Source: a phage | Sequence record: PV808484.1 | Length of the DNA: 64,000 nt | Strand: one strand, 5' to 3' | In this document: one piece after another, positions 1,281 through 54,291 of the stretch | How the letters are laid out: every line of letters begins with the position of its first letter | How positions within the stretch are numbered: the stretch's first letter is position 1 | Made by a program: the position numbers and the translations under genes | Notes under the pieces: model-generated | What the model saw: only the letters and a program-made list of their open reading frames with translations | Database searches by the model: none | Told to the model about the DNA's origin: nothing

Positions 1281-3017
1281 TTAGTTTACCAGTTTATTTA
1301 TGTCTGGTAAAAGATTTATTTCACCTAAGAAATCACCTTCACCTTCCTCTAGCCAACTCTCATATGCTTGTGCATGATTATAGTTACCATCAAAAGAATC
1401 TGCAACAAATTTTTCTACAGTTTTTCGAGATGTGCCAGCGCCAAATACACCAAGTTTAATACCATTGATCGGTAAAGTGGTGCTTGTGGGTACTTTCTCT
1501 GTTGCAACACGGTTGATATCTATAATCTCCTGTACGGTTGTATTCCATTGTAAGCATTTAACACAACGGGTGTGCGCTACATACAGTAGGTTTCGCTCTG
1601 CCTCTTCCAGTCCTACCCATTCACCAGTCTTTTTATCATAATTGGAAGGAAAATCATTAGCAACAATAACCTGATCCCACTCCAAACCTTTAGATTTGTG
1701 TGCTGTAGTCAATGTGACTTTTGCTGTAGGAGAATTTCTATGCGTTCTAAGTGTATGTGCTATAGTGTTTGCCTTACCAGAAACTACAATGTTTAACAAA
1801 CGTTTAGCATCTGGATCAGCCTCTGCACACTCAACAAATTCATCCCAGTCTGCATAAGGTAATACAGTTTCATGTTTTACTTTCTCAATATCTCCTCTCC
1901 GAAGAGCATTAACACTATCTACCATAGAGATAAAATCCCTGGTATCTACGTTAATAATAATTTCTTCCCCGTCTGCAATACGATCCATTGCCTCCATAAG
2001 CAAGGTTAAATTCTTGCGAAAGATGATAGTGTAAGGCTTTGTATAGTCTACAACATCTGATTTGTAGCTACCTACTACAGTATCAAAGCCTTTACCAACC
2101 AAAGGATGACGCAAAGGTTCTTTATCACTTAAAATCATATTCGCAATGTTTGCCACTTTGGGGCCAAAACGGAAGCAAGCAGTTAATGGAAGTTCTGCCC
2201 CATATGTAGAAGTTTCCTTCATCATATTTTGGCTTCCACGGAACTGGTAGATGCTCTGATATTCGTCTCCCACCACTACTACTTGTTTTGCAGATTTAGC
2301 ATTCCGCAGAATAGACAAGAATGCAGGGTTAACATCCTGGAATTCATCCCCAAAAATAATGTCATAACCAAGATCAGCACCTGATAATTCAAACAATTTT
2401 ACATAGGTGTCATGCGTCATCAAAGTATCTGTGTTAGGATCAATGCGCTCTCGCCACAATTGTTTTGCATACTTAACTACTTCTGTAATTAGTTTGTGTT
2501 CGTTAATACCTTTTCTTTTAATATCTGCAAGATGTACACCAGGAAAATGTTTACGGCTGATAAAAGGATCATCCGAAAATTCAAACTTACCTACGGTTTG
2601 CTTGATCATTAAACCAATCATAGCACGAGTTAAAAGTGTTTTCCCTCGTTTATCAATAAGATTATTAATCTTAAATTTCTTTGCTATCTCGCTACCTGTA
2701 CCTGCAACGTTAACATACTGTCCTTCTGGTCGTGACAGTTTTGCACGTAAACGATGATCCAGGAATTGATAGCAAATGGAATGCAATGTACGGCATTCTA
2801 CATTTGGTGGCATCTTACGCCGTGCTTCTTCTGCCATGCTTTTATTGAAAGCTAAGTAAAGAATGCGATCTTCTGTACTGTTAGCCAGCAAATAAAGTGT
2901 TGACGTTTTGCCTGATCCAGATTTAGCCTGGATAGTTAAAAAGCGATGATCTGGAAAAGCCTCCTTAATAGCTGTTTGCTCTTCTGTTGGAGTAAAACTC
3001 AACTCTTTCTTAGCCAT
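1281..3017 (-). CDS. UvrD/PcrA-family SF1 DNA helicase
   Basis: Walker A AKSGSGKTST, DEFQD, VGDEYQSIYQFRG, TTAHKSKGLEWD; start set at internal ATG with AGAGAGG SD, abutting upstream stop. Confidence 0.8.
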   Translation of the reverse strand: MAKKELSFTPTEEQTAIKEAFPDHRFLTIQAKSGSGKTSTLYLLANSTEDRILYLAFNKSMAEEARRKMPPNVECRTLHSICYQFLDHRLRAKLSRPEGQYVNVAGTGSEIAKKFKINNLIDKRGKTLLTRAMIGLMIKQTVGKFEFSDDPFISRKHFPGVHLADIKRKGINEHKLITEVVKYAKQLWRERIDPNTDTLMTHDTYVKLFELSGADLGYDIIFGDEFQDVNPAFLSILRNAKSAKQVVVVGDEYQSIYQFRGSQNMMKETSTYGAELPLTACFRFGPKVANIANMILSDKEPLRHPLVGKGFDTVVGSYKSDVVDYTKPYTIIFRKNLTLLMEAMDRIADGEEIIINVDTRDFISMVDSVNALRRGDIEKVKHETVLPYADWDEFVECAEADPDAKRLLNIVVSGKANTIAHTLRTHRNSPTAKVTLTTAHKSKGLEWDQVIVANDFPSNYDKKTGEWVGLEEAERNLLYVAHTRCVKCLQWNTTVQEIIDINRVATEKVPTSTTLPINGIKLGVFGAGTSRKTVEKFVADSFDGNYNHAQAYESWLEEGEGDFLGEINLLPDINKLVN

Positions 3018-3018
3018 T

Positions 3019-3495
3019 TCAACCTCTCTTAATTTGTTTAACAAGCATAGGAACAAAATCTCGTTTTAAAATTTGTTCAATAATGTGATCAGGTAGCTGT
3101 TGGAAATTATAATTAAAAGCTACTGTTTCACCTTTAGGTGTTTCTACCCGCACATATAACATGTTGCGAAGTTTATCCACTTGTGCTGTATATTCTAAAC
3201 CACGTAATTGATGCATTGCAAACATCAAATCATCAGTTTCAGTTTGGAATCTATCCCTTGTCTGCATCAAGGATAAGGCAAAAGGTAGATTTTCCCTAAG
3301 AGCCACCTTCTTAGGCACTAGTGAAGGGAAATACTCCCCAATAACTTCCTGTGTAAGCTGAATACACTCTTTTTCAAGCTGGTTTTGTTCCTTGAGTTCA
3401 CAAACACTTTTTTGTAAAGTGTTAACCTCTTTTTGCAAAGCTGCTAGTTGAGCACTTAACTTTCTTTTTTGATTACGACCAAAACGTTTAGACAT
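3019..3495 (-). CDS. hypothetical protein (coiled-coil N-terminus)
   Basis: 158 aa ORF; operon context. Confidence 0.5.
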   Translation of the reverse strand: MSKRFGRNQKRKLSAQLAALQKEVNTLQKSVCELKEQNQLEKECIQLTQEVIGEYFPSLVPKKVALRENLPFALSLMQTRDRFQTETDDLMFAMHQLRGLEYTAQVDKLRNMLYVRVETPKGETVAFNYNFQQLPDHIIEQILKRDFVPMLVKQIKRG

Positions 3496-4406: not shown

Positions 4407-4770
4407 AAATATCCTCCCAAATCCAATAATCATCTGTGTAAGTAGGATGCCTTTTATCCCACTCTGTTCTAGCCCAAGCAACCGCTGCTACCAACACATC
4501 ACCATGACAAGGTTGAGGTGAGCAGAAGCAAACTAAGTCTTTCCCTTCTAATTCTAACAAATCCTCAAGAGTGATTTTACCACAACGAATTTGTTCCCAC
4601 AACCACTCTTTATATCTTTGTATAGTTGATCCTCGTGGTTCATCATCCTTTAACTTGAAAGGATTTGCAAACTTTGAGGCTTTTAACCCCATATGAGGCA
4701 TAGCTCTGCCAATGTACACTGCACCTTCAGGTATTACTTTACCTGAGTGGTAAAAATTTAATACTTTCAT
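4384..4770 (-). CDS. DUF4326-like protein
   Basis: 128 aa; AVYIGR...SKFANPF...LVCFCSPQPCHGDVL pattern typical of DUF4326. Confidence 0.5.
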   Translation of the reverse strand: MKVLNFYHSGKVIPEGAVYIGRAMPHMGLKASKFANPFKLKDDEPRGSTIQRYKEWLWEQIRCGKITLEDLLELEGKDLVCFCSPQPCHGDVLVAAVAWARTEWDKRHPTYTDDYWIWEDIYEDYTRN

Positions 4771-4771
4771 A

Positions 4772-5122
4772 TTAACCCAAACACATCTGCGCGATCAAGC
4801 CTTGTATAAATTTATTAGCTTCTTTACTGTCGTAGTCAGTCTCTTCTGGATATCCATCTTCATCGTACACAACTGTACCTTCAATATACCCTGCCTCAAT
4901 TAAGGCGCGGATCATATCAAATTGCCAGCATGAGTTACCAAATGGACGTTTACCATTAAAACACTCTTCTTCTCTCCATAACGTAGAGAGTAGTTGTCGG
5001 AAATATTCCCGTACAGTGACAGTACCAAGATCTGAATCCTCAAACATAACATCCAGGGCATCAGGATTGCTTTTCTCTACATAAGGAATATATTTAACAC
5101 CATTAATAGTTACATCAAGCAT
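4772..5122 (-). CDS. hypothetical protein
   Basis: 116 aa ORF; 1-nt gap to neighbours. Confidence 0.5.
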   Translation of the reverse strand: MLDVTINGVKYIPYVEKSNPDALDVMFEDSDLGTVTVREYFRQLLSTLWREEECFNGKRPFGNSCWQFDMIRALIEAGYIEGTVVYDEDGYPEETDYDSKEANKFIQGLIAQMCLG

Positions 5123-5485
5123 TTATTTCTCCTTATCATCATATTCTAGGAACATATCTGCACGATATGCTTTACGCTCTTCAAACTTAGCAGGATCTAC
5201 AACAATAAGCAATACAAGGTTAACATCTAAATACTTTTTAACAAATAGAAATAAATCTTTTCCACAGTTAAAACCTACACCAGTATAGGCATCCCCATAT
5301 TGATCTACTGATTTAATCTTCTTACTAACCGTACATTCTATGCTATTCTTTTCTTCTTGGTATAAGGCTTTCCCACCCCAATATGTAAAGAATTTAGTAC
5401 CGTCAGCACCAAGTTTAAAACCCTCTGTTGCATGTCCCGCAAATGAAAGTAAGCATAACCAAGTGATCATCAGGTACTTTAGCAT
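5123..5485 (-). CDS. predicted secreted protein
   Basis: N-terminal signal-peptide-like LMITWLCLLSFAGHA; ATG with AGGTGG SD directly after upstream stop. Confidence 0.5.
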   Translation of the reverse strand: MLKYLMITWLCLLSFAGHATEGFKLGADGTKFFTYWGGKALYQEEKNSIECTVSKKIKSVDQYGDAYTGVGFNCGKDLFLFVKKYLDVNLVLLIVVDPAKFEERKAYRADMFLEYDDKEK

Positions 5486-5486
5486 T

Positions 5487-5969
5487 TTAACCACCTAATT
5501 GCAAATGTTTAGAAAGAACAATATCCCACTGATCACCACAACCGTTATCTATGCGGAACATAATGTACGTATCATCTTCTTCTACGACATATAATACCTC
5601 ATAGGAATTACAACAGCCTTCCCAATTTTTAACAGCCTCTGGTGTATCATGTGTAAAAATTTCATTACCATCATATGACCAAAACAAAGGAGTAAGGTTT
5701 TCGAACGTCAGTGAAGTAGGGTTCACTTCGTCTTTAACTGCTTCCTCATATTCCTTATGCGTTTGTACTGCTTTAGTTAGTGTACTCATGTCTATCTCCT
5801 TTTCTCCTTCTTGACTATGGAGGATAGCGAACTCTCTAAACTCCACCTCACGCCATGTTTTCAGGTAGTGCTTTATAATTTGATCAACATCTGCCTGTTC
5901 AACGTTACTTTTCAAGCAATAGTAGTCATGGTCTTCACCCATTCTACCCCATATGCTATACATTGTCAT
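5487..5969 (-). CDS. hypothetical protein
   Basis: 160 aa ORF. Confidence 0.5.
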   Translation of the reverse strand: MTMYSIWGRMGEDHDYYCLKSNVEQADVDQIIKHYLKTWREVEFREFAILHSQEGEKEIDMSTLTKAVQTHKEYEEAVKDEVNPTSLTFENLTPLFWSYDGNEIFTHDTPEAVKNWEGCCNSYEVLYVVEEDDTYIMFRIDNGCGDQWDIVLSKHLQLGG

Positions 5970-10903: not shown

Positions 10904-12031
10904 ATGAAATACACGATTTATGGTGATATTGTAAGTGTAAATAAAGATATGGGCGTGGAATCTAACTACCTTCCACCTGGATTCTATACTGTTAGTCGTG
11001 ATCCCCTTGGCAATTATTTTTTAAGCCGTGGTAATCTGACAGGTGTACCGGATGTTCTGTATGGTGAAACAGAAAAACGAGCAAATCACGTTATCCGTAC
11101 ATTCCATCGCCGGAGTGCACAAGGTAAAAATACAGGTTTGCTCCTGACAGGAACTAAGGGCAGTGGTAAAACTATGTTAGCCAAACTCATTAGTCGTGAC
11201 CTTGTAGAAGAAGGTATTCCAACTATTATGGTTACTCAAGCCTACAGCGATGCTAATTTCATTGAACTTATTAGCAAGATCACCGACAAAGCAGTGATTA
11301 TTTTTGACGAGTTTGATAAAGTGTATGAGAAGAAACAAGATCAAGAAGCACTTCTCACTTTGTTAGATGGTACTGGCAGTGGTAATAAACTGTTTATTCT
11401 GACTAAAAACAGTGGTTTTATCTCTGAATTCTTTTTAAATCGTCCTAGTCGTGTGTTTTATAATTTTAATTATGATAAAATCTCACTAGAAACTATGATT
11501 GACTATTTAGATAAAAACCTGGATAACAAAGCACACTTTGATAATTTCCAAAGACTTTGGGATGTAAGTTTAGAGTTGTCCTTTGATGTGATCCAAGGTA
11601 TAGTAGAAGAACTTAATTTCTACCCTGATTTATCCTTTAAAGAATGCATCTCTATGATGGGCGTTTCTTTAGGTGGTGGTAATAAATGGGATATCAGCAG
11701 CGTTGTTATTAATGGAAAACTTCAGAAAGTTAGCTGGGTATCTAGTTGGCATAACTTCACACCTGCAATCTTTTTAGGTGGTTCGTGCACACTAGACGTG
11801 TACTTGTCATCTCCAAGTGATGCAGATTCTAAAGAAGCCCTTGCTAATAGCTCTTACGTGGTTTTTGATGATGAAGGCGATGCTCGAATTCCATTGAATG
11901 CGACAAAAATGAAAGCAGACCTTATCACAGGCGGTAAAATCGTTGTGTTTAGTGATGATCCAGAAGATTCTTTCCGTATTGTTCTGGAACCAACTATCAC
12001 CAATGGTGCAACTTTGGCAAGCGTGTTTTAA
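10904..12031 (+). CDS. AAA-type ATPase
   Basis: Walker A LLTGTKGSGKTMLAKL and Walker B VIIFDEFDK. Confidence 0.7.
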   Translation: MKYTIYGDIVSVNKDMGVESNYLPPGFYTVSRDPLGNYFLSRGNLTGVPDVLYGETEKRANHVIRTFHRRSAQGKNTGLLLTGTKGSGKTMLAKLISRDLVEEGIPTIMVTQAYSDANFIELISKITDKAVIIFDEFDKVYEKKQDQEALLTLLDGTGSGNKLFILTKNSGFISEFFLNRPSRVFYNFNYDKISLETMIDYLDKNLDNKAHFDNFQRLWDVSLELSFDVIQGIVEELNFYPDLSFKECISMMGVSLGGGNKWDISSVVINGKLQKVSWVSSWHNFTPAIFLGGSCTLDVYLSSPSDADSKEALANSSYVVFDDEGDARIPLNATKMKADLITGGKIVVFSDDPEDSFRIVLEPTITNGATLASVF

Positions 12032-45862: not shown

Positions 45863-46188
45863 CAACTCTCCTCAAAATCCATAAGTATAAAGATATTAAC
45901 TTTACCTTCTATATTATGTTCTACAACAAGATCTGCAAATTCTTTGTAGGCTTTTTCTTCTATTTGTTCAATGTGAGACGCTACATCTTTGTATATAGCG
46001 TCACCATCTACTTTAACAAGGAGGAATAGAGATCTTACTTCAATCTCTTTATTTTTACGGGGTAGAAAATCGACGGCTTCTTGTATACGCCAGCCGAGAT
46101 ACCCTGGAGTCCTTTGAATATCCTCCAAATGACTTTCTAAGATTTCCCTTCCTTTGTCTATTAAAGCCTGTTCTGTCGTTATTTTCAT
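45862..46188 (-). CDS. hypothetical protein
   Basis: 108 aa ORF. Confidence 0.55.
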   Translation of the reverse strand: MKITTEQALIDKGREILESHLEDIQRTPGYLGWRIQEAVDFLPRKNKEIEVRSLFLLVKVDGDAIYKDVASHIEQIEEKAYKEFADLVVEHNIEGKVNIFILMDFEES

Positions 46189-46198
46189 CCCCTTCTCC

Positions 46199-46771
46199 TT
46201 AATGTGTTAATGAAACTGCGTAGCTAAACACAGGTTCAGATATTACATCGGCTACAGTAATAAAAACGTCTTCGTCTTGAGTTGTTTCTACACGACATAC
46301 AGTTACACCATTCACCACGAATTCAACGCAATGTGGAATATTTTCACAAACGAAGGTAGTGTAAGTAACACCCAAAGCATCATACAAAGATTTAACAGTG
46401 TTTGCAAGTGCCGCAGTTTCTTCTTTTTCTGAGACAATGAATGCTGTAACAACAAGATTGTTTGCATAGTTTAGACTGTCCTCTATAGCCAATGATTTAC
46501 AAGGTAGTAATGCAAAATATTTACCTGGTTTAATCAGACCTGCTTCCCATTGATTCAAAATTGCCTGGGATGGTTTAGTAATATAAAACAGATTTTCACT
46601 TGGGTTATCAATATTACTTCTGGCGATACAACGTGAAGGATTATTAATATCAAACACATGATCAAAATCTACACAAACAGGTAAACTGAAAGGTGTGAAT
46701 TTTTTACCTAATAATCCTATGGCTGATAATATGTTTGCTGTGCTTATCTTCCCGTTAAAAGCTAAACGCAT
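46199..46771 (-). CDS. hypothetical protein
   Basis: 190 aa ORF. Confidence 0.55.
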   Translation of the reverse strand: MRLAFNGKISTANILSAIGLLGKKFTPFSLPVCVDFDHVFDINNPSRCIARSNIDNPSENLFYITKPSQAILNQWEAGLIKPGKYFALLPCKSLAIEDSLNYANNLVVTAFIVSEKEETAALANTVKSLYDALGVTYTTFVCENIPHCVEFVVNGVTVCRVETTQDEDVFITVADVISEPVFSYAVSLTH

Positions 46772-46782
46772 ATTTAACTCCT

Positions 46783-46986
46783 TTAACTAGCAACCGTAAC
46801 TTCCGAACTTTCTTCTTTCGTACTGTCTACGATATGCCTGGTGGCAATATACGAGACTTGCCAGTTACCATCTGGTGTAGTCTCAATAAGTACCCTATCT
46901 ACTTCGAGAAAATGCAAAAATTCAACCATCGCTCGCTTCGATAGGAATTGTTTTTTAACAGTCTCCTCAAAAGATTGAACTGCCAT
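46783..46986 (-). CDS. hypothetical protein
   Basis: 67 aa; GGAGGAAA SD. Confidence 0.5.
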   Translation of the reverse strand: MAVQSFEETVKKQFLSKRAMVEFLHFLEVDRVLIETTPDGNWQVSYIATRHIVDSTKEESSEVTVAS

Positions 46987-46995
46987 GTTTCCTCC

Positions 46996-47658
46996 TTATT
47001 TAATATTCAATTTTGCACAAAGACGTTGTACCGCTTTGGCATCGAACAAACTCCCACGAATAGTTCTCTTTCCTGATTCATTCAGATGCTTTGCAATCGT
47101 CATATATGGCGTTTTACAAGCTCTGTATGCAACTAAAGAATCTTTTAAAGAAAGCGCAAACTCTCTTGAGCGTTTTGCTTCTTCCGTTTTCGTATAATCT
47201 GTTCTTTTGTATTTAGGGTTTGCTGCACCAAGAAGCGTTCCCTTCGCTTTTGCTACCTTAAGGCTCTTCTTAACACGATCAGATATTGCACGAGCCTCTT
47301 CTTCTGCCAGAACTGCTAAAATATTTATTATCATATTTTCAGCGGAGGGCATAGTTGCTATTCGTACATTAATCATCTCTAACAAGGTTGCAACAGAAGC
47401 TGTGTTACGTCCAAGACGGTCAACCTTAGCAACAACAAGTGTAGCACCTGTTTCTTTGCAAAGATTAACAGCTTTTACAAGCTCTCTACGTTGCTTCCAA
47501 TCGCCTTTACCCGAATAAAACTCTGCAAAGCTACCTACAATAGTATAATTTTCTTGTGAATCCAGGAAGCGTTGAATATCTGCTTCCTGTGATTCTATAC
47601 CATACTGGTTGCCTTGTTGTTTCTTCTTAGAAAGTCGATGATATAGTACAAACTTCAT
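46996..47658 (-). CDS. serine recombinase (resolvase/invertase family)
   Basis: N-terminal YHRLSKKKQ with catalytic Ser, VAKVDRLGRN, C-terminal HTH-like segment; GGAGGG SD. Confidence 0.8.
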   Translation of the reverse strand: MKFVLYHRLSKKKQQGNQYGIESQEADIQRFLDSQENYTIVGSFAEFYSGKGDWKQRRELVKAVNLCKETGATLVVAKVDRLGRNTASVATLLEMINVRIATMPSAENMIINILAVLAEEEARAISDRVKKSLKVAKAKGTLLGAANPKYKRTDYTKTEEAKRSREFALSLKDSLVAYRACKTPYMTIAKHLNESGKRTIRGSLFDAKAVQRLCAKLNIK

Positions 47659-47715
47659 AATACCCTCCTGTTCTGTTACAGGAAGTATGCACTACCTTAA
47701 TGTTAAAGTCAACAG

Positions 47716-47919
47716 TTAAGTAGTGGTAATATCATCCTCTTGAATACCAGGGTCAACTTCTGCAAAGATAGCCTCTACAGGAATTTCTTCACCTGCTATT
47801 CTAGAAAGAAGCACTGAACCAATAGCTTTTGCGTGTTCTTCGGATTCCGCATAAACATTAGTTCCTGTGTCTTTTTTCTTAGTTTCGTTAAAATATACCA
47901 GATAGTAATTGTATGCCAT
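47716..47919 (-). CDS. hypothetical protein
   Basis: 67 aa ORF. Confidence 0.45.
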   Translation of the reverse strand: MAYNYYLVYFNETKKKDTGTNVYAESEEHAKAIGSVLLSRIAGEEIPVEAIFAEVDPGIQEDDITTT

Positions 47920-48170
47920 TATTCATCCCAATCGTTGTTACGAGCACTTTCAAGAACCTTGACAACTTCTGCATACTCTACAGCTAAACCAGCACACACT
48001 TCAGCTTGTTTTGCAATTGCTTGTTTAAAGAACATAGCGATTGCAACACTCTGTGTTGTGTGAATGTTATCTGCTTTAGTTGATACATGAAGATCAAAAT
48101 CTTCTTCATCAAAGGTGAGTTCCATAGTAACAATAAATTTCTCGGTCATAAAAATGCTCCTCTTAAACAA
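47919..48170 (-). CDS. hypothetical protein
   Basis: 83 aa ORF. Confidence 0.5.
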   Translation of the reverse strand: MFKRSIFMTEKFIVTMELTFDEEDFDLHVSTKADNIHTTQSVAIAMFFKQAIAKQAEVCAGLAVEYAEVVKVLESARNNDWDE

Positions 48171-48672
48171 AATAGAAAGGTTGAGTTAAACCCAGCCTGT
48201 TTTTTGGGTCGTAGACGTACCAAGCATATGCTGTCTTATCAGTACCACCTGCAACAAAAGATGGTCGTTCAGAAAGAACAATCAAATTTGTTGGTGGATT
48301 CTGTTTATGGAATTCCCTTCGTTTAATAGACTCTAGGAACCCAAGACGCAACAAGTATATGCAAACGTCTGCTTCTTTTAAGCTCTTTTGCAAGAACTCA
48401 AGTGCAAGTTTGAATGGGGGATTTGTGATTATAATATCCGGCTTAGTATGCCATTCGTGGTTAAAATAATCTTTCCCTTCTTCTAACTCACAATATTCTG
48501 ATCCTTCTGGAAAATGTTGATAAATTGCAGCAGCAGCGCCTTTACACGGTTCTGCAAAAATAAAACCTTCTTCTTTAAGGTTATTAAAATCTATTACACT
48601 AAATAATGCATTTATACATTTTTGTGGAGTAGGATAGTAATCAGTTGGTGGACGATCATACTTATTTGCCAC
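48163..48672 (-). CDS. small DNA N6-adenine methyltransferase (probable GTG start)
   Basis: DYYPTP and IIITNPPF motifs; GAGGAG SD. Confidence 0.6.
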   Translation of the reverse strand: MANKYDRPPTDYYPTPQKCINALFSVIDFNNLKEEGFIFAEPCKGAAAAIYQHFPEGSEYCELEEGKDYFNHEWHTKPDIIITNPPFKLALEFLQKSLKEADVCIYLLRLGFLESIKRREFHKQNPPTNLIVLSERPSFVAGGTDKTAYAWYVYDPKNRLGLTQPFYFV

Positions 48673-49090
48673 TACTTAAAATCTCCTCTTTTGTGATTTC
48701 AGGGTCTTCTTCAAAAACCATAATATCTCTTAAGAACGTTAATTCTTCCATAGATACTGGTATTGTATCTTCTTCTGTTTTTCGTTTACATAAATCGTCA
48801 AGAAAGTTTTTAAAGTTTTCTGACAAGTCGTAAAATTTCAACAGTTGATAATCACAGGAGGAGATCCTATCTAGTTCTAACATTCTTTCTAAGATATTTT
48901 CTGTGTTGCCGTACAACACACGAACTTCTCCGAAAGGGTTGACTAAATATTGTGAAGTTCTGAACCATCCCTTTTTAGATACAGTGTAACGCTGTTCTGC
49001 TAAACTTTCAATAAAATTTTTAGCTCTTTTACAGTTTTGTTCTAAAGAGTAGTAGGCTTTTTCTACAAAGTTTACAGGTACTGGTAACAT
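48662..49090 (-). CDS. hypothetical protein
   Basis: 142 aa; AGGAGGAG SD. Confidence 0.55.
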   Translation of the reverse strand: MLPVPVNFVEKAYYSLEQNCKRAKNFIESLAEQRYTVSKKGWFRTSQYLVNPFGEVRVLYGNTENILERMLELDRISSCDYQLLKFYDLSENFKNFLDDLCKRKTEEDTIPVSMEELTFLRDIMVFEEDPEITKEEILSSGK

Positions 49091-49105
49091 ATCTCCTCCT
49101 AATAA

Positions 49106-49120
49106 CCCCCCTTGAGGGGG
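49106..49120 (-). terminator. intergenic hairpin abutting RBS
   Basis: CCCCC-CTTGA-GGGGG directly 5' of AGGAGG SD. Confidence 0.4.
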
Positions 49121-49131
49121 TTTATACTAGA

Positions 49132-49785
49132 TTAATTATCAGAGGACACTTTATCAAGTTTTTCAGAGACTGTCAATACTTTTTCTTGTGATTCTTTCAT
49201 TTCTGCTAAAATACTTTCAGCTTCATCACTATCAGGATCACCAGTCAACAGCATACTAATTAGTTGCTCCTTGCTGAAGTTCAGAATATCTTCCGCTGTT
49301 AACTCCAGTTGTTCTTCGATCTCTTCGATAAAAGTTTCACCGCCTGAAAAAGCATCTCGCAGTTTTGCAACTTCCATCGCTTCTTCTGGGGTTGCCCCAG
49401 CGTCTAAAGCTGCTAAAGCAAAATCTGCCCCACTACCCACAGCATAATAATCTTCAGTTAAAGGATATGCTCGCGTTGGATTATTACCCTCGTGCATATA
49501 AATTTTACCGTCTGGGTGAACAACCAATGCCACAAACTCTTCATCTTCTTTATCAGGATCTGACTGGATCACCAAACCTGGGATTGTCTCTTGTGCTGCT
49601 TGGCATTGTAAGTTTTGTTCGAACCAAGAAAAGAAAGTCAGGATAGAAGACAGACGTCCTGCACCACCAACAAGGTAATCCCCAATTTTACGCACTTTCT
49701 TGAAATTTAAAGTGTCTACACGACTACCTACTGTTACCTTACCGTCAGACAGAATTTTGTTACGTGTTGCAATAATTGTTGTCAT
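49132..49785 (-). CDS. HslV/proteasome beta-like Ntn peptidase
   Basis: N-terminal MTTIIATR, DGKVTVG, KVRKIGDYLVGGAG, AVGSGADFALAA align with HslV blocks. Confidence 0.65.
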   Translation of the reverse strand: MTTIIATRNKILSDGKVTVGSRVDTLNFKKVRKIGDYLVGGAGRLSSILTFFSWFEQNLQCQAAQETIPGLVIQSDPDKEDEEFVALVVHPDGKIYMHEGNNPTRAYPLTEDYYAVGSGADFALAALDAGATPEEAMEVAKLRDAFSGGETFIEEIEEQLELTAEDILNFSKEQLISMLLTGDPDSDEAESILAEMKESQEKVLTVSEKLDKVSSDN

Positions 49786-50276
49786 TATACTTCCTCCTGT
49801 AGTGTTTTAAGGACTGCTTTACCACCGCTTACATATTTACGGAGGTAATCAATAGCTCTTAGTGTTTCTTTATCCACAAGAATTTTATTAGTTCTTGTTA
49901 GTGGATGATTTAGTAAATCACTGCAATTTCTTACTAACATAGATTTCTTGTGAAAGATACTGCTAAGAAAAAGAAGTTTAGAATCTTCTTCATCAATCAG
50001 GAGTAATTCTGAATTAGACCCAGCTATATTTATTATACACTCAAACAAGCCTTCTTGACTATCAGATAATTCCTGGTAATATTTAGTTAGCCAATCCTCG
50101 CCTTTTAACCAACTAAAAAACATCTGAACTTTTTGCAAAGTTGTCATGTTCTCTAAACGAAGAGATATTTCTTTTTCAATCTTGTCAATATAAATCTGTC
50201 TAAACTCATTCGGCTTAACTAAGCCAGCTTGATAGCATTCATCAATACCATTGCGATCAATCTCAATTAGCGTCAT
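49785..50276 (-). CDS. hypothetical protein
   Basis: 163 aa ORF. Confidence 0.55.
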   Translation of the reverse strand: MTLIEIDRNGIDECYQAGLVKPNEFRQIYIDKIEKEISLRLENMTTLQKVQMFFSWLKGEDWLTKYYQELSDSQEGLFECIINIAGSNSELLLIDEEDSKLLFLSSIFHKKSMLVRNCSDLLNHPLTRTNKILVDKETLRAIDYLRKYVSGGKAVLKTLQEEV

Positions 50277-50312
50277 TTAACCTCCATAACAGGCATCCTT
50301 GCCTTGTAATTA

Positions 50313-51065
50313 TTAATATACTTCCGTGATGAACTGAGACAAACGGGAACGTTGGTTATCAGCAGTTGTCATTTCAACATAACCAATAAAATCCACAATA
50401 GCTTCCCTTTCTCCTTCTTCGTTAATAGGAACAACACGATCTAACAAATCACCTAACCCGTTAGCTCTTCGTTTAATTGCATATGTTTGATTAACATCGC
50501 CCATAATGACAATACGTGTATTAAGACCTGCTCGCTCAAGGAGAAGTTTTACTGTATTTGGTGACATAAGTTGAACTTCATCAATAAGAATAATGCTGTT
50601 ATCCCACGTAGCACCTAGTGCATAGTTTGGAATATTAAGTTCAATTTTGCCACTTGCAATATCGTTTTCCAATTTATTTGCAGTCATAAACTGTTGGAAA
50701 ATTCTTTTAGTTGATTCGTAGTGTGCTGCTAGTTTATCAGTTTTATCTCCAGATAAGAAACCAATTTGATCATCACCTACTTCTGTCGGGTTTTTAAGGA
50801 AAATCAACTTTCTGAAATCACCAGCTTTAAGCATTTGCAATGCTTTCCATAGTGCTGTTGTCGTTTTTCCTGTTCCTGCTGGGGCATTAACAATGGTTAA
50901 ATCATTCCAAACCATGCTTCTTACAATAGCTTCTTGATTCCCAATAGGGGTAAATTCATCAAGACGGTAATCATCATTTCCTACTGCTTTAGCCGCATAA
51001 CGACTGGCACGTTTGTCATCATTGGCTGCTGATTGACGACGAGCCTTTGCGGTTTTATTTCCCAT
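50313..51065 (-). CDS. phoH: PhoH-like ATPase
   Basis: Walker A NAPAGTGKTTTAL; PhoH-typical length. Confidence 0.8.
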   Translation of the reverse strand: MGNKTAKARRQSAANDDKRASRYAAKAVGNDDYRLDEFTPIGNQEAIVRSMVWNDLTIVNAPAGTGKTTTALWKALQMLKAGDFRKLIFLKNPTEVGDDQIGFLSGDKTDKLAAHYESTKRIFQQFMTANKLENDIASGKIELNIPNYALGATWDNSIILIDEVQLMSPNTVKLLLERAGLNTRIVIMGDVNQTYAIKRRANGLGDLLDRVVPINEEGEREAIVDFIGYVEMTTADNQRSRLSQFITEVY

Positions 51066-51084
51066 GTTTGCACTCCTTATAAAA

Positions 51085-51098
51085 GGGGCTTTCGCCCC
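51085..51098 (-). terminator. intergenic GNRA-loop hairpin (attenuator-like) abutting RBS
   Basis: minus-strand RNA GGGGCGAAAGCCCC then UUUUAUAAGGAG and phoH ATG; identical to 39798 element. Confidence 0.45.
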
Positions 51099-51103
51099 TT
51101 TGT

Positions 51104-51604
51104 TTAGTTATAAGCGTCTAATGTTCCAGTTTTAAGTACCTGAATTACACGCTCTGCGCGATTAGGCGTTTGGCGATACCATTTACTTTTACGTAAATTT
51201 ATAGAGGCTTGAGTATAATATGAATTACTCACTAAAGTCAAGCTATTTTTGAAAGATTCTGCACCTTTCAATCCCATTTGAAATACCATATTAATAATAG
51301 CCATTTTACGATTAGGACTTACTTTATCGTAAATAGGAGATAATATGGTACTTGAATGGATTTGTTGTATCGCTTTCTTTACGTCACTCTCAAAGATTTT
51401 TCTAGCTTCCGCTTCAGTAATAACTCCATTGGTTTTTCTACCTACTAAGTTATCAAGAATGCGTATAGCTTCTGCTTTATCTTTGCGTTTTGTCAGAAGG
51501 TGTCCAATACCAACTGTCCAATACCCTTCGGTATCAGGATATACAGTTAGCTTTAGTCCTTCATCAAAACGTAACATATCAAACACATCAACTACCTTAG
51601 CCAT
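51104..51604 (-). CDS. T4-type lysozyme (endolysin)
   Basis: MLRFDEGLKLTVYPDTEGYWTVGIGHLL and NMVFQMG close to T4 lysozyme. Confidence 0.9.
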   Translation of the reverse strand: MAKVVDVFDMLRFDEGLKLTVYPDTEGYWTVGIGHLLTKRKDKAEAIRILDNLVGRKTNGVITEAEARKIFESDVKKAIQQIHSSTILSPIYDKVSPNRKMAIINMVFQMGLKGAESFKNSLTLVSNSYYTQASINLRKSKWYRQTPNRAERVIQVLKTGTLDAYN

Positions 51605-51616
51605 GTTTTCCTTATA

Positions 51617-51760
51617 TCAGTCGCCCTCCCCATGATCTAGCTCTTGAAACAGTAGGTGTTCAGGAGACATTTCACGTTTAGGCTTCGTCTTTTTAGTTTG
51701 GGACTTAAGCTCTGTTGCCAAAGCACGAGAAAAGATCTTACGTTTCTGTTTACCTTTCAT
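51617..51760 (-). CDS. small basic protein (47 aa)
   Basis: hand-translated MKGKQKRKIFSRALATELKSQTKKTKPKREMSPEHLLFQELDHGEGD; GGAG SD. Confidence 0.35.
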   Translation of the reverse strand: MKGKQKRKIFSRALATELKSQTKKTKPKREMSPEHLLFQELDHGEGD

Positions 51761-51764
51761 ATTG

Positions 51765-52025
51765 TTACTCCGCAATCTGAGCCATGAATTCACGTAGTTC
51801 AGAAAAACCTCCTACGTGGGTTAGCTGTTCACCATCTTCCACAAAAATCTGAGGAAATGTGCGTGGTAGAACACCTGTTTTCTCTAAAACCAGATTCTGA
51901 ATCTGATCTAAAGAATAGTCTTCATCTAAGGTAAGGTATTTAAAATCCTGTTCACGCTGTTCTAGTAGAATCTTAGCGTTAGTGCAGAAAGGACAATTTG
52001 GTTTACCGTAGATAATAAAATTCAT
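51765..52025 (-). CDS. glutaredoxin-like protein
   Basis: CPFC active site; start set to ATG (MNFIIYGKPNCPFC) with AAGGAG SD. Confidence 0.8.
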   Translation of the reverse strand: MNFIIYGKPNCPFCTNAKILLEQREQDFKYLTLDEDYSLDQIQNLVLEKTGVLPRTFPQIFVEDGEQLTHVGGFSELREFMAQIAE

Positions 52026-52027
52026 TT

Positions 52028-52858
52028 TCACTCCTTGTTTAAAAGTATAGTTAAAGTTCTTACAATACCGCTATCAACACTTCGCGGATTTAAAGTAGGA
52101 TCTGTTTTTAAATAAGATGTTGCTGGTCTGACTGCTTTGGAATTATAGGTTGAAGCAGACACAGGATTAACTGTAACAGATAAATCTATAACAAGAAATA
52201 TCTTTCGTGCAAAATCATACCAAGAAATATAATCTGCACCTGCATAGTGTACAATTTTACTATTTACACCATCTTTTACAAGTTTAAAAATTGTTTCTGC
52301 AAGATCAGGTGCATAAGTAGGACATGATAAATGATCACATACTACATTAAATTCTTTTTGACCACCGTTGTAGCGTTCCAACATAGTTTTCAAAAAGTTA
52401 TGTCCAAATTCACTATAAACAGAAGCTGTTCTGATAATAAGTGCTGTAGGACAAACTGTTTGTACTAAAGTTTCACCTAATTGTTTACTGTAACCGTAGG
52501 TGTTCAAGGGGTTTGTTTTACTATCTTCTGTGCCAGCAACATGCCCATCAAAAACATAGTCTGTTGAAATATGTACAAACTGTATCAGTAAATCATTACA
52601 TGCTTTGGCAATGTTTGTTGCACCGTATGCATTAACATTTATACAGGTGTTAACATCTTCTTCAGCTTTATCTACTGCCGTGTAAGCCGCACAATTCACA
52701 ACAACATCAGGCACATGCTGTACAAGACTATTCATAACATCTTTAAAGTTGGTAATGTCTATATCACTTGCTTCAATCAAAACAACATCTTCTGGTGCAA
52801 CTTTTGCCAAAGATTGTCCTAATTGACCTTTTGATCCAAAGACTAAAAATTTTGTCAA
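52028..52858 (-). CDS. rmlD: dTDP-4-dehydrorhamnose reductase (probable TTG start)
   Basis: N-terminal FGSKGQLGQ Rossmann motif; typical RmlD length; AAGGAG SD. Confidence 0.8.
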   Translation of the reverse strand: MTKFLVFGSKGQLGQSLAKVAPEDVVLIEASDIDITNFKDVMNSLVQHVPDVVVNCAAYTAVDKAEEDVNTCINVNAYGATNIAKACNDLLIQFVHISTDYVFDGHVAGTEDSKTNPLNTYGYSKQLGETLVQTVCPTALIIRTASVYSEFGHNFLKTMLERYNGGQKEFNVVCDHLSCPTYAPDLAETIFKLVKDGVNSKIVHYAGADYISWYDFARKIFLVIDLSVTVNPVSASTYNSKAVRPATSYLKTDPTLNPRSVDSGIVRTLTILLNKE

Positions 52859-53409
52859 AGTATGATCTCCTTTAGTGTTTTTGCTTCCTGATCTTTTTGT
52901 GACAAGATAGGTTTAAAATTAATATCATTAAAGATTAAATCAAAACCCCAATCTATATTGATATCTGGATCATTCCACGCAAGACTACATTCTGAAGTCG
53001 GATCGTAATATTCTGTACATTTATATTCAAAATCAGCAATATCGCTAATCACAACAAAGCCATGAGCGAAACCAGGAGGAATCCAAAATTGTGTTTTATT
53101 CTTTTCAGATAAGAGAACACCTACCCATTCTCCAAATGTTGGACTACCAACCCTAATATCTACAGCAACATCATAAACTTCACCACGAACACAGCGTACT
53201 AACTTCCCTTGTGGGTTTTTCTTTTGAAAATGAAGCCCACGTAGAACTCCTCGGATAGAACGTGAATGGTTATCTTGGACAAAGTTTTGTTTACCTATGT
53301 ATTGATCATATAAAGCCTGATTAAAACTTTCTAAGAAAAAGCCACGTTCATCTCCGTAAACGTCAGGTTGAATGATCAACAAATCTTCGATTTTTGTTGC
53401 TTGAATCAT
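52855..53409 (-). CDS. rmlC: dTDP-4-dehydrorhamnose 3,5-epimerase
   Basis: GDERGFFLESF, RGLHFQ and cupin-type motifs. Confidence 0.85.
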   Translation of the reverse strand: MIQATKIEDLLIIQPDVYGDERGFFLESFNQALYDQYIGKQNFVQDNHSRSIRGVLRGLHFQKKNPQGKLVRCVRGEVYDVAVDIRVGSPTFGEWVGVLLSEKNKTQFWIPPGFAHGFVVISDIADFEYKCTEYYDPTSECSLAWNDPDINIDWGFDLIFNDINFKPILSQKDQEAKTLKEIIL

Positions 53410-53421
53410 TTAATTCCCCTT

Positions 53422-54291
53422 TTATTTTAATTTAAGTAAATACTTACCGTAGTCTGTTTTACTTAAAACCTCTCCAGAACTTTTTACAGAGTCTAAAGTA
53501 ATCCATTCATTTTTAAAAGCAATCTCTTCCAGGCATGCAACCTTCATACCTTGTTGCTTCTCTATTGCATGAACAAATTGAGATGCTTCCATAAGACTTT
53601 CATGTGTTCCTGTATCCAGCCAAGTGAAACCTCTTCCTAGCTTACAGACACGTAAAGCCTTTTCTTTCCAGTACATCTCATTTATATCTGTGATCTCTAA
53701 CTCCCCTCTAGCAGAAGGCTTAACGCTTTTAGCTTTCTGTATAACAGAATTATCGTAAAAGTACAAGCCTGTAATTGCATAGTTGCTTTTTGGTGCTTTT
53801 GGTTTTTCTTCAATACTTACTACTGTACCTTCAGAATCAAACTCAACAACACCAAATCTTTCAGGATCATTTACGTGATACCCAAAAATATTAGCTCCAC
53901 CATTCTTTTCAATATGTTCTCTAGCAGAATCTAAAATGCTACCAAAACTCTGACCAAAGAATAAATTATCACCTAGAACAAGTGCTACAGAATCTTCACC
54001 AATAAAGCTCTCACCAATAATAAACGCTTCTGCTAAACCTTTTGGGCTGTCCTGTATTGCATACTGTAGGGAAACACCAAAAGAAGAACCATCACCTAGA
54101 AGATTTACAAAATTAATTTGATCTTCTGGTGTTGTAATTATTAGTATTTCCCTAATTCCAGAAAGCATTAGGACAGAGAGTGGATAATAAATCATAGGTT
54201 TATCGTAAATTGGTAATAGTTGTTTACTAACCCCTTTAGTAACTGGGTAAAGTCTTGTCCCACTACCACCCGCTAAGATAATACCTTTCAT
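53422..54291 (-). CDS. rmlA: glucose-1-phosphate thymidylyltransferase
   Basis: [18 protein letters not shown]...[16 protein letters not shown]. Confidence 0.9.

Follow-up and report, generated by a model that had tools for sequence, protein, structure and literature searches.

What does a phage-encoded proteasome-like peptidase work with when no unfoldase gene lies beside it? The question is raised by a gene at 49132..49785 on the minus strand of a 64,000-nucleotide stretch of phage DNA (sequence record PV808484.1), here called the window. A preliminary description, made from the letters of the window, had recognized the product as an HslV-like peptidase and had suggested that it may recruit the host unfoldase HslU (ClpY) or act as a standalone peptidase. 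We find it reasonably probable that the product, gp058, is a PPH-type viral proteasome homologue that acts as an ATP-independent threonine peptidase in the infected cell and makes no use of host HslU in the manner of canonical HslV. This reading is based on the fold, a full and invariant catalytic set, the lack of a propeptide and of helix H2, and the lack of a co-inherited AAA+ gene. Judged from sequence and by analogy with a bacterial relative, a stand-alone peptidase appears better supported than recruitment of host HslU/ClpY, which is disfavoured.

The gene and its existing annotation

The open reading frame (ORF) is genuine. It encodes 217 amino acids (aa) starting with MTTIIATR, is 99–100% identical to genes of phi92-like phages and corresponds to phi92 gp058 (YP_009012389). 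A ribosome-binding site, AGGAGG, is located 7 nt 5′ of the ATG (49793..49798, minus strand), where the phi92 RefSeq record marks AGGAG, and the start overlaps the stop of the upstream gene, gp059 (TAATG). The 4-kb region around the gene is 99.2–99.3% identical to phi92 and its relatives, and the source of the window is a phi92-like E. coli myovirus (Justusliebigvirus).

Phi92-like records in GenBank and RefSeq name the 99–100% identical protein “peptidase HslV family”, “putative 20S proteasome”, “putative nucleophile aminohydrolase” or “hypothetical”. The PHROG family phrog_1040 (“peptidase HslV family”) matches gp058 over its whole length (residues 1–212, E 1.3e-61). The Pfam Proteasome model PF00227 is also passed (25.1 bits against a gathering threshold of 22.4), with a match that covers residues 11–63 only. 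Members of PF00227 are proteasome-like N-terminal nucleophile (Ntn) hydrolases, classed in MEROPS as T1. Together with the near-identical annotated phi92 genes, these matches confirm the observation of the ORF far beyond chance. The finding itself is already known, because it re-describes existing annotation and a published trait of the family.

Two database entries for this gene deserve mention. In Escherichia phage VEcB, the 267-aa product vecB_055 has a PhoH Pfam match, although 71% of the gp058 sequence aligns with it at 100% identity; the record probably contains a chimeric or frameshifted ORF here. The peptidase of “Campylobacter phage” A145 (MG065645) is 99.5% identical to gp058 of the E. 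coli phage in the window.

Catalytic residues and fold

An alignment of the gp058 family that includes relatives down to 31% identity retains the full proteasome catalytic set. The preliminary description had pointed to a threonine directly after the initiator methionine, and this residue, Thr2 (codon at 49780..49782, minus strand, as are all residues listed here), is invariant. It is the presumed N-terminal nucleophile (Thr1) after removal of Met, with no propeptide. An M-T-[TSI] start was found in 207 of 224 relatives, and the rest mostly resemble truncated or mis-started ORFs. Also invariant are Asp14 (49744..49746), equivalent to Asp17 of the proteasome and HslV, and Lys30 (49696..49698), equivalent to Lys33. 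The oxyanion-hole glycine block is GGAG at residues 40–43 (49657..49668), in which Gly41 and Gly43 are invariant and correspond to Gly47. Ser129 is represented by the invariant Ser118 within a GSG motif at residues 117–119 (49429..49437).

The remaining part of the set is RDAFSGG at residues 143–149 (49339..49359), which aligns with RDAYSGG of human beta5. This is the 20S-beta-type Asp166/Ser169/Gly170 block (Asp144 and Ser147 for the first two), which is not conserved in E. coli HslV. Within the gp058 family, Arg143-Asp144-x-x-Ser147-Gly-Gly is invariant or nearly so. Loss of catalytic residues on careful alignment had been named beforehand as grounds for rejecting the peptidase assignment; the alignment shows all of them in place. 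The alpha-beta-beta-alpha Ntn fold of proteasome subunits is present, and residues 1–155 form a compact Ntn-hydrolase core.

Relationship to HslV

The designation HslV-like holds at the level of the superfamily, in that gp058 is a homologue of HslV and proteasome beta subunits, but not in the sense of orthology. The curated HslV equivalog models require 137 bits (NF003964) and 157.75 bits (TIGR03692); gp058 scores 34.0 and 31.6 bits, approximately 100 bits under the cut-offs. None of ten sampled hits from a profile search with the gp058 family reached these cut-offs either. Relative to E. coli HslV, gp058 is short by 4 residues in the first hairpin, by about 25 at helix H2 and by 9 in the H3–H4 link. 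In the AlphaFold2 (AF2) model a single helix (residues 45–67) is followed by coil (68–83). The AF2 coil, the deletion of about 25 residues and the charge indicate that helix H2 and the basic pore cluster of HslV are replaced by an acidic loop, IPGLVIQSDPDKEDEEF (residues 68–84; 49534..49584, minus strand; net charge −5). At the position of the HslV Arg86/Arg89/Lys90 cluster, gp058 carries the acidic sequence SDPDKEDEEF. In HslV this cluster, located on helix H2, is required for activity, and its conformation is remodelled on HslU binding (PMC5777263).

The core is followed by a C-terminal helical extension of 62 aa (residues 156–217; 49135..49320, minus strand) with a net charge of −12 and the family motif ILNFSKEQLISML, delimited using the alignment, the AF2 model and charge. 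Extensions of relatives are variable in length and sequence, reach up to 230 residues, and are acidic in all 18 close relatives aligned (net charge −7 to −28). There is no Pfam match to the extension of gp058, nor to the longer C-terminal domains of relatives. The motif L..FSKEQLI..L was considered as a SAP/HeH-type DNA-binding module and rejected, as Pfam gave no support even at an E value of 10. Because the equivalog cut-offs are failed, H2 and Arg86/Arg89/Lys90 are absent and an acidic C-terminal tail is present, gp058 is, on sequence criteria, not an HslV orthologue.

Placement in the PPH family

In 2021, Fuchs, Alva and Lupas reported 22 new homologues of the proteasome (PMC8665760). Among these, PPH proteins have about 140 residues, occur in Caudovirales and prophage regions, and lack H2, a trait common only to their relative RPC (PMC8665760). 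No AAA+ partner co-occurs with them (PMC8665760). Phage HslV genes without HslU were also noted in a study of Salmonella jumbo phages (PMC7823757).

A profile search with the gp058 family over 1.84 billion representatives yielded 1,973 proteins at E ≤1e-10, including many of 137–150 aa that begin MTTI. The core of gp058 (residues 1–155), compared as a family profile, matches a profile of the short forms of about 140 aa over its entire length (hhalign probability 100%, E 1.6e-45). The gp058-type peptidase was found in 167 phage records, and short forms were found in phages of Caulobacter, Brevundimonas, Bradyrhizobium and Vibrio. In bacterial contigs, which were scanned using a 6-sequence alignment, short forms adjoin terminase, portal-like and integrase genes, as published for PPH. 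The profile match to the short forms, together with their occurrence in phages and prophages, fits the published PPH. By these published criteria we place gp058 as a PPH-type protein, and, since a 62-residue acidic helical extension follows the core, as an extended variant. This assignment is made at the level of sequence and predicted structure.

Several of the PPH loci have arrangements of their own. In prophage-like contexts the gene of about 140 aa adjoins the large terminase gene (L036, 3487–7696; L046, 1246–3486; contigs of bacterial metagenome-assembled genomes and chromosomes). In L036 it is located between the terminase and a portal-like/adaptor gene, a head-morphogenesis position, unlike the early-gene position of gp058. 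Aeromonas phage 2L372D (L003) encodes two differing proteasome-like genes in tandem, at 4432–4983 and 5001–5885. The first product is 184 aa long, starts (M)TCIIAL and has GCG in place of the family GSG; the second, of 294 aa, is the gp058 relative. It is conceivable that the pair forms a hetero-oligomer.

The missing HslU and a distant AAA ATPase

An HslU-like ORF was sought and was found neither in the 64-kb window, nor among annotated genes of a 28-kb stretch of phi92, nor in Shewanella phage 1/40. The earlier statement that no HslU-like gene is adjacent to gp058 therefore stands, as there is none among the window ORFs. That a partner is missing has been published as a general trait of PPH and is not peculiar to the PV808484.1 genome.

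A Walker-A scan of window ORFs of ≥80 aa identified three P-loop proteins: a superfamily 1 helicase (1281..3056), an AAA protein (10904..12031, plus strand) and a PhoH-like protein (50313..51065). The second had been singled out in the preliminary description as an AAA ATPase on the other strand, about 38 kb away, and its AAA identity is borne out by matches to PF00004 (38.9 bits) and phrog_2376. Members of this family occur in large myoviruses of both Gram-negative and Gram-positive hosts under labels as varied as “FtsH-like protease”, “ATPase or Zn metalloprotease” and “helicase”. Phi92-like records contain a second, weaker match to this protein outside the window. The match in “Campylobacter phage” B15 (MG065650) equals those of phAPEC8-like phages in identity and score, and the Campylobacter host labels of both MG065645 and MG065650 look doubtful.

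Proposed activity and alternative readings

The most probable course of events is the following. Host methionine aminopeptidase would remove Met1 and expose Thr as the nucleophile; Thr in position 2 is permissive for Met removal. The protein would be made from an early or middle cluster of nucleotide-metabolism and host-takeover genes and would cleave without ATP, probably after self-assembly. Its targets would be peptides, proteins without structure or some particular group of proteins. Substrates, possibly basic ones, may be selected or gated by the acidic loop and tail.

Other readings place an unfoldase behind the peptidase. Rings resembling those of HslV might dock E. coli HslU (ClpY) and thereby redirect ATP-dependent degradation to substrates chosen by the phage. 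The host does have HslU, but we regard this as unlikely because the H2 region is missing and because of the analogy with BPH, a similarly modified HslV descendant that has an acidic pore loop and no unfoldase and does not pull down HslU (PMC5777263). The helix that carries Arg86/Arg89/Lys90, needed for HslV activity and remodelled by HslU (PMC5777263), is replaced by the acidic loop, and the failed HslV equivalog cut-offs and the shorter first hairpin and H3–H4 link also argue against docking. Still less can be said for the AAA ATPase at 10904..12031 as the dedicated unfoldase of gp058, which we consider very improbable. It is a genuine PF00004 protein, and all phi92-like and phAPEC8-like phages carry it together with the peptidase (each search returned 107 Escherichia records), but the two genes are on opposite strands and in different gene clusters. 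Its family, found in 380 phage records, is much broader than that of the peptidase: many of these are phages of Enterococcus, Bacillus, Staphylococcus, Lactococcus and Lactobacillus, none of which is among the 10 organism groups named in the peptidase search (6 further groups are unnamed). In addition, the complete genome of Shewanella phage 1/40 encodes a peptidase with 32% identity to gp058 but contains no homologue of the 10904 protein and no AAA+-like Walker-A ORF, so the 10904 protein is not a dedicated partner and was rejected as such.

A lineage-specific partner might instead be encoded next to the peptidase. Two genes overlooked by the first reading lie immediately upstream on the minus strand: gp059 (49785..50276; 163 aa), whose stop overlaps the gp058 start, and the PhoH-like P-loop ATPase (50313..51065), two genes upstream of gp058. 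Both are conserved only within this phage lineage, throughout which PhoH neighbours the peptidase gene. The order PhoH–gp059–peptidase, including the stop/start overlap, is kept down to 41–50% peptidase identity (loci L021 and L022). PhoH is encoded upstream of the peptidase gene in four divergent lineages (phi92-like phages, Vibrio 501E54-1, Aeromonas 2L372D and Shewanella 1/40, where it is directly adjacent), although few other window proteins have counterparts in the Vibrio, Aeromonas and Shewanella phages. The translationally coupled gp059, for which an all-alpha orphan fold is predicted with confidence (pLDDT 94; no known relative), is a possible partner or regulator, and its conservation alongside gp058 suggests membership in such a system. 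The peptidase could thus be the protease subunit of a module in which PhoH and/or gp059 deliver, gate or regulate substrates, but we think this improbable. PhoH is not an AAA+ unfoldase, and the link is weakened because the whole surrounding block (glutaredoxin, lysozyme, methyltransferase, invertase and DprA) is likewise syntenic, so that common descent accounts for the adjacency; because the Vibrio, Aeromonas and Shewanella phages have no detectable gp059; and because unrelated PPH loci lack both neighbours. Across 23 loci with PPH genes from unrelated phages and prophages, the peptidase is the sole family in common. A role of PhoH as partner across the whole PPH family is not supported, as PPH genes of Caulobacter and Bradyrhizobium phages and of 16 bacterial or prophage loci lack a PhoH gene in their vicinity. 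A more far-reaching version, which we hold to be distinctly improbable, is that PhoH, the orphan-fold gp059 and gp058 make up a new phage-encoded regulated protease of the phi92/Vibrio/Aeromonas/Shewanella lineage. In that scheme the non-AAA+ P-loop ATPase and/or the novel adaptor would feed or gate the peptidase, which its acidic loop and tail would direct to basic host proteins (nucleoid, defence) at takeover.

It is also possible, though unlikely, that gp058 is not a bulk protease at all and is a specific processing enzyme, a connectase-like transpeptidase/ligase or an amidase whose substrate is not a protein. The inertness of BPH, the closest unfoldase-free analogue, in standard peptidase assays (PMC5777263) means that the true substrate class may be unusual. 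Against such roles, gp058 keeps the full 20S-type catalytic set including Asp166/Ser169, its AF2 model lacks the connectase-type S3/S4 helical insertion, and it resembles HslV and beta subunits far more than connectase. A role as prohead protease was considered and is unlikely, given that the neighbours of gp058 are nucleotide-metabolism and early-type genes and that it is located outside any head module.

Several points count against gp058 as a PPH-type, ATP-independent peptidase that works alone. Its best sequence match among solved structures is HslV (E 5e-8), and the host, as stated, supplies an HslU. The behaviour of BPH in peptidase assays also means that “stand-alone peptidase” may be too simple a term. 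The conserved PhoH–gp059–peptidase arrangement could reflect a lineage-specific partner, and expression timing is deduced from gene neighbourhood only. The literature searched contains no measurement of activity, oligomeric state or substrate for any PPH, and no experimental study of a PPH or phage HslV-like protein was found there. Only one clue to function emerged: in jumbo phage RAY, a protein of the HslV family localises to the phage nucleus (bioRxiv 10.1101/2023.02.24.529968).

The surrounding gene cluster

The neighbourhood of gp058 includes genes for ribonucleotide reductase, glutaredoxin, PhoH, methyltransferases, Sir2 and DprA. A GC-rich hairpin, CCCCCTTGAGGGGG (49107..49120), is located in the 41-nt gap between gp058 and gp057. 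Short GC-rich palindromic hairpins are present in three consecutive gaps of this minus-strand cluster (49107–49120, 50291–50304 and 51082–51101). A promoter and terminator scan of 46000–53500 gave counts that were not above those of shuffled controls, and thus no transcription unit can be defined.

Also present is gp051 (46199..46771, minus strand; 190 aa), named “histidyl tRNA synthetase” in PHROGs and RefSeq. It has no Pfam match and is far shorter than histidyl-tRNA synthetase, and the name is probably misleading. A serine recombinase/DNA invertase (46996..47658, minus strand; PF00239, E 8e-22) is retained both by the lytic phages of this lineage and by Shewanella phage 1/40, and shares the syntenic block with PhoH, the peptidase and DprA.

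Significance and comparison with known systems

Viral proteasome homologues are widespread in large phages, as indicated by the 167 phage records for the gp058 subfamily and the 1,973 cluster representatives at E ≤1e-10 for the wider family. With an easily grown E. coli phage and a genetically tractable host, gp058 is a convenient entry point to these proteins. What is added here is small: the protein is of PPH type and no orthologue of HslV, it lacks the part of HslV that interacts with HslU, the AAA protein encoded far away is not its partner, and a lineage-specific PhoH–gp059 neighbourhood is present.

Of the known systems, PPH resembles gp058 in being carried by tailed phages, in its compact core without propeptide or H2, in Group I similarity to HslV and BPH, and in the lack of an AAA+ partner. 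It differs in that the acidic loop of gp058 at the H2 position is longer and is accompanied by the 62-residue acidic helical tail (217 aa compared with about 140). RPC, compared by its published description, shares with gp058 a PPH-like core without H2 and C-terminal additions. However, RPC is more divergent, has an additional C-terminal domain and is reported only from proteobacterial genomes, with no phages in Table 1 (PMC8665760), whereas gp058 is phage-encoded. BPH (Betaproteobacteria proteasome homolog; PDB 5OVS, 5OVT and 5OVU) is, like gp058, related to HslV; both show an acidic loop at the pore position and lack a propeptide and a partner unfoldase. Unlike HslV (ClpQ), gp058 has no accompanying hslU gene and no H2 cluster, and its first hairpin and H3–H4 link are shorter; it keeps the 20S-type RDxxSGG block that is absent from E. 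coli HslV and has an additional C-terminal tail. Relative to 20S proteasome beta subunits, to which identity is approximately 16–24%, gp058 lacks a propeptide, an alpha-subunit partner and helices H2 and H5.
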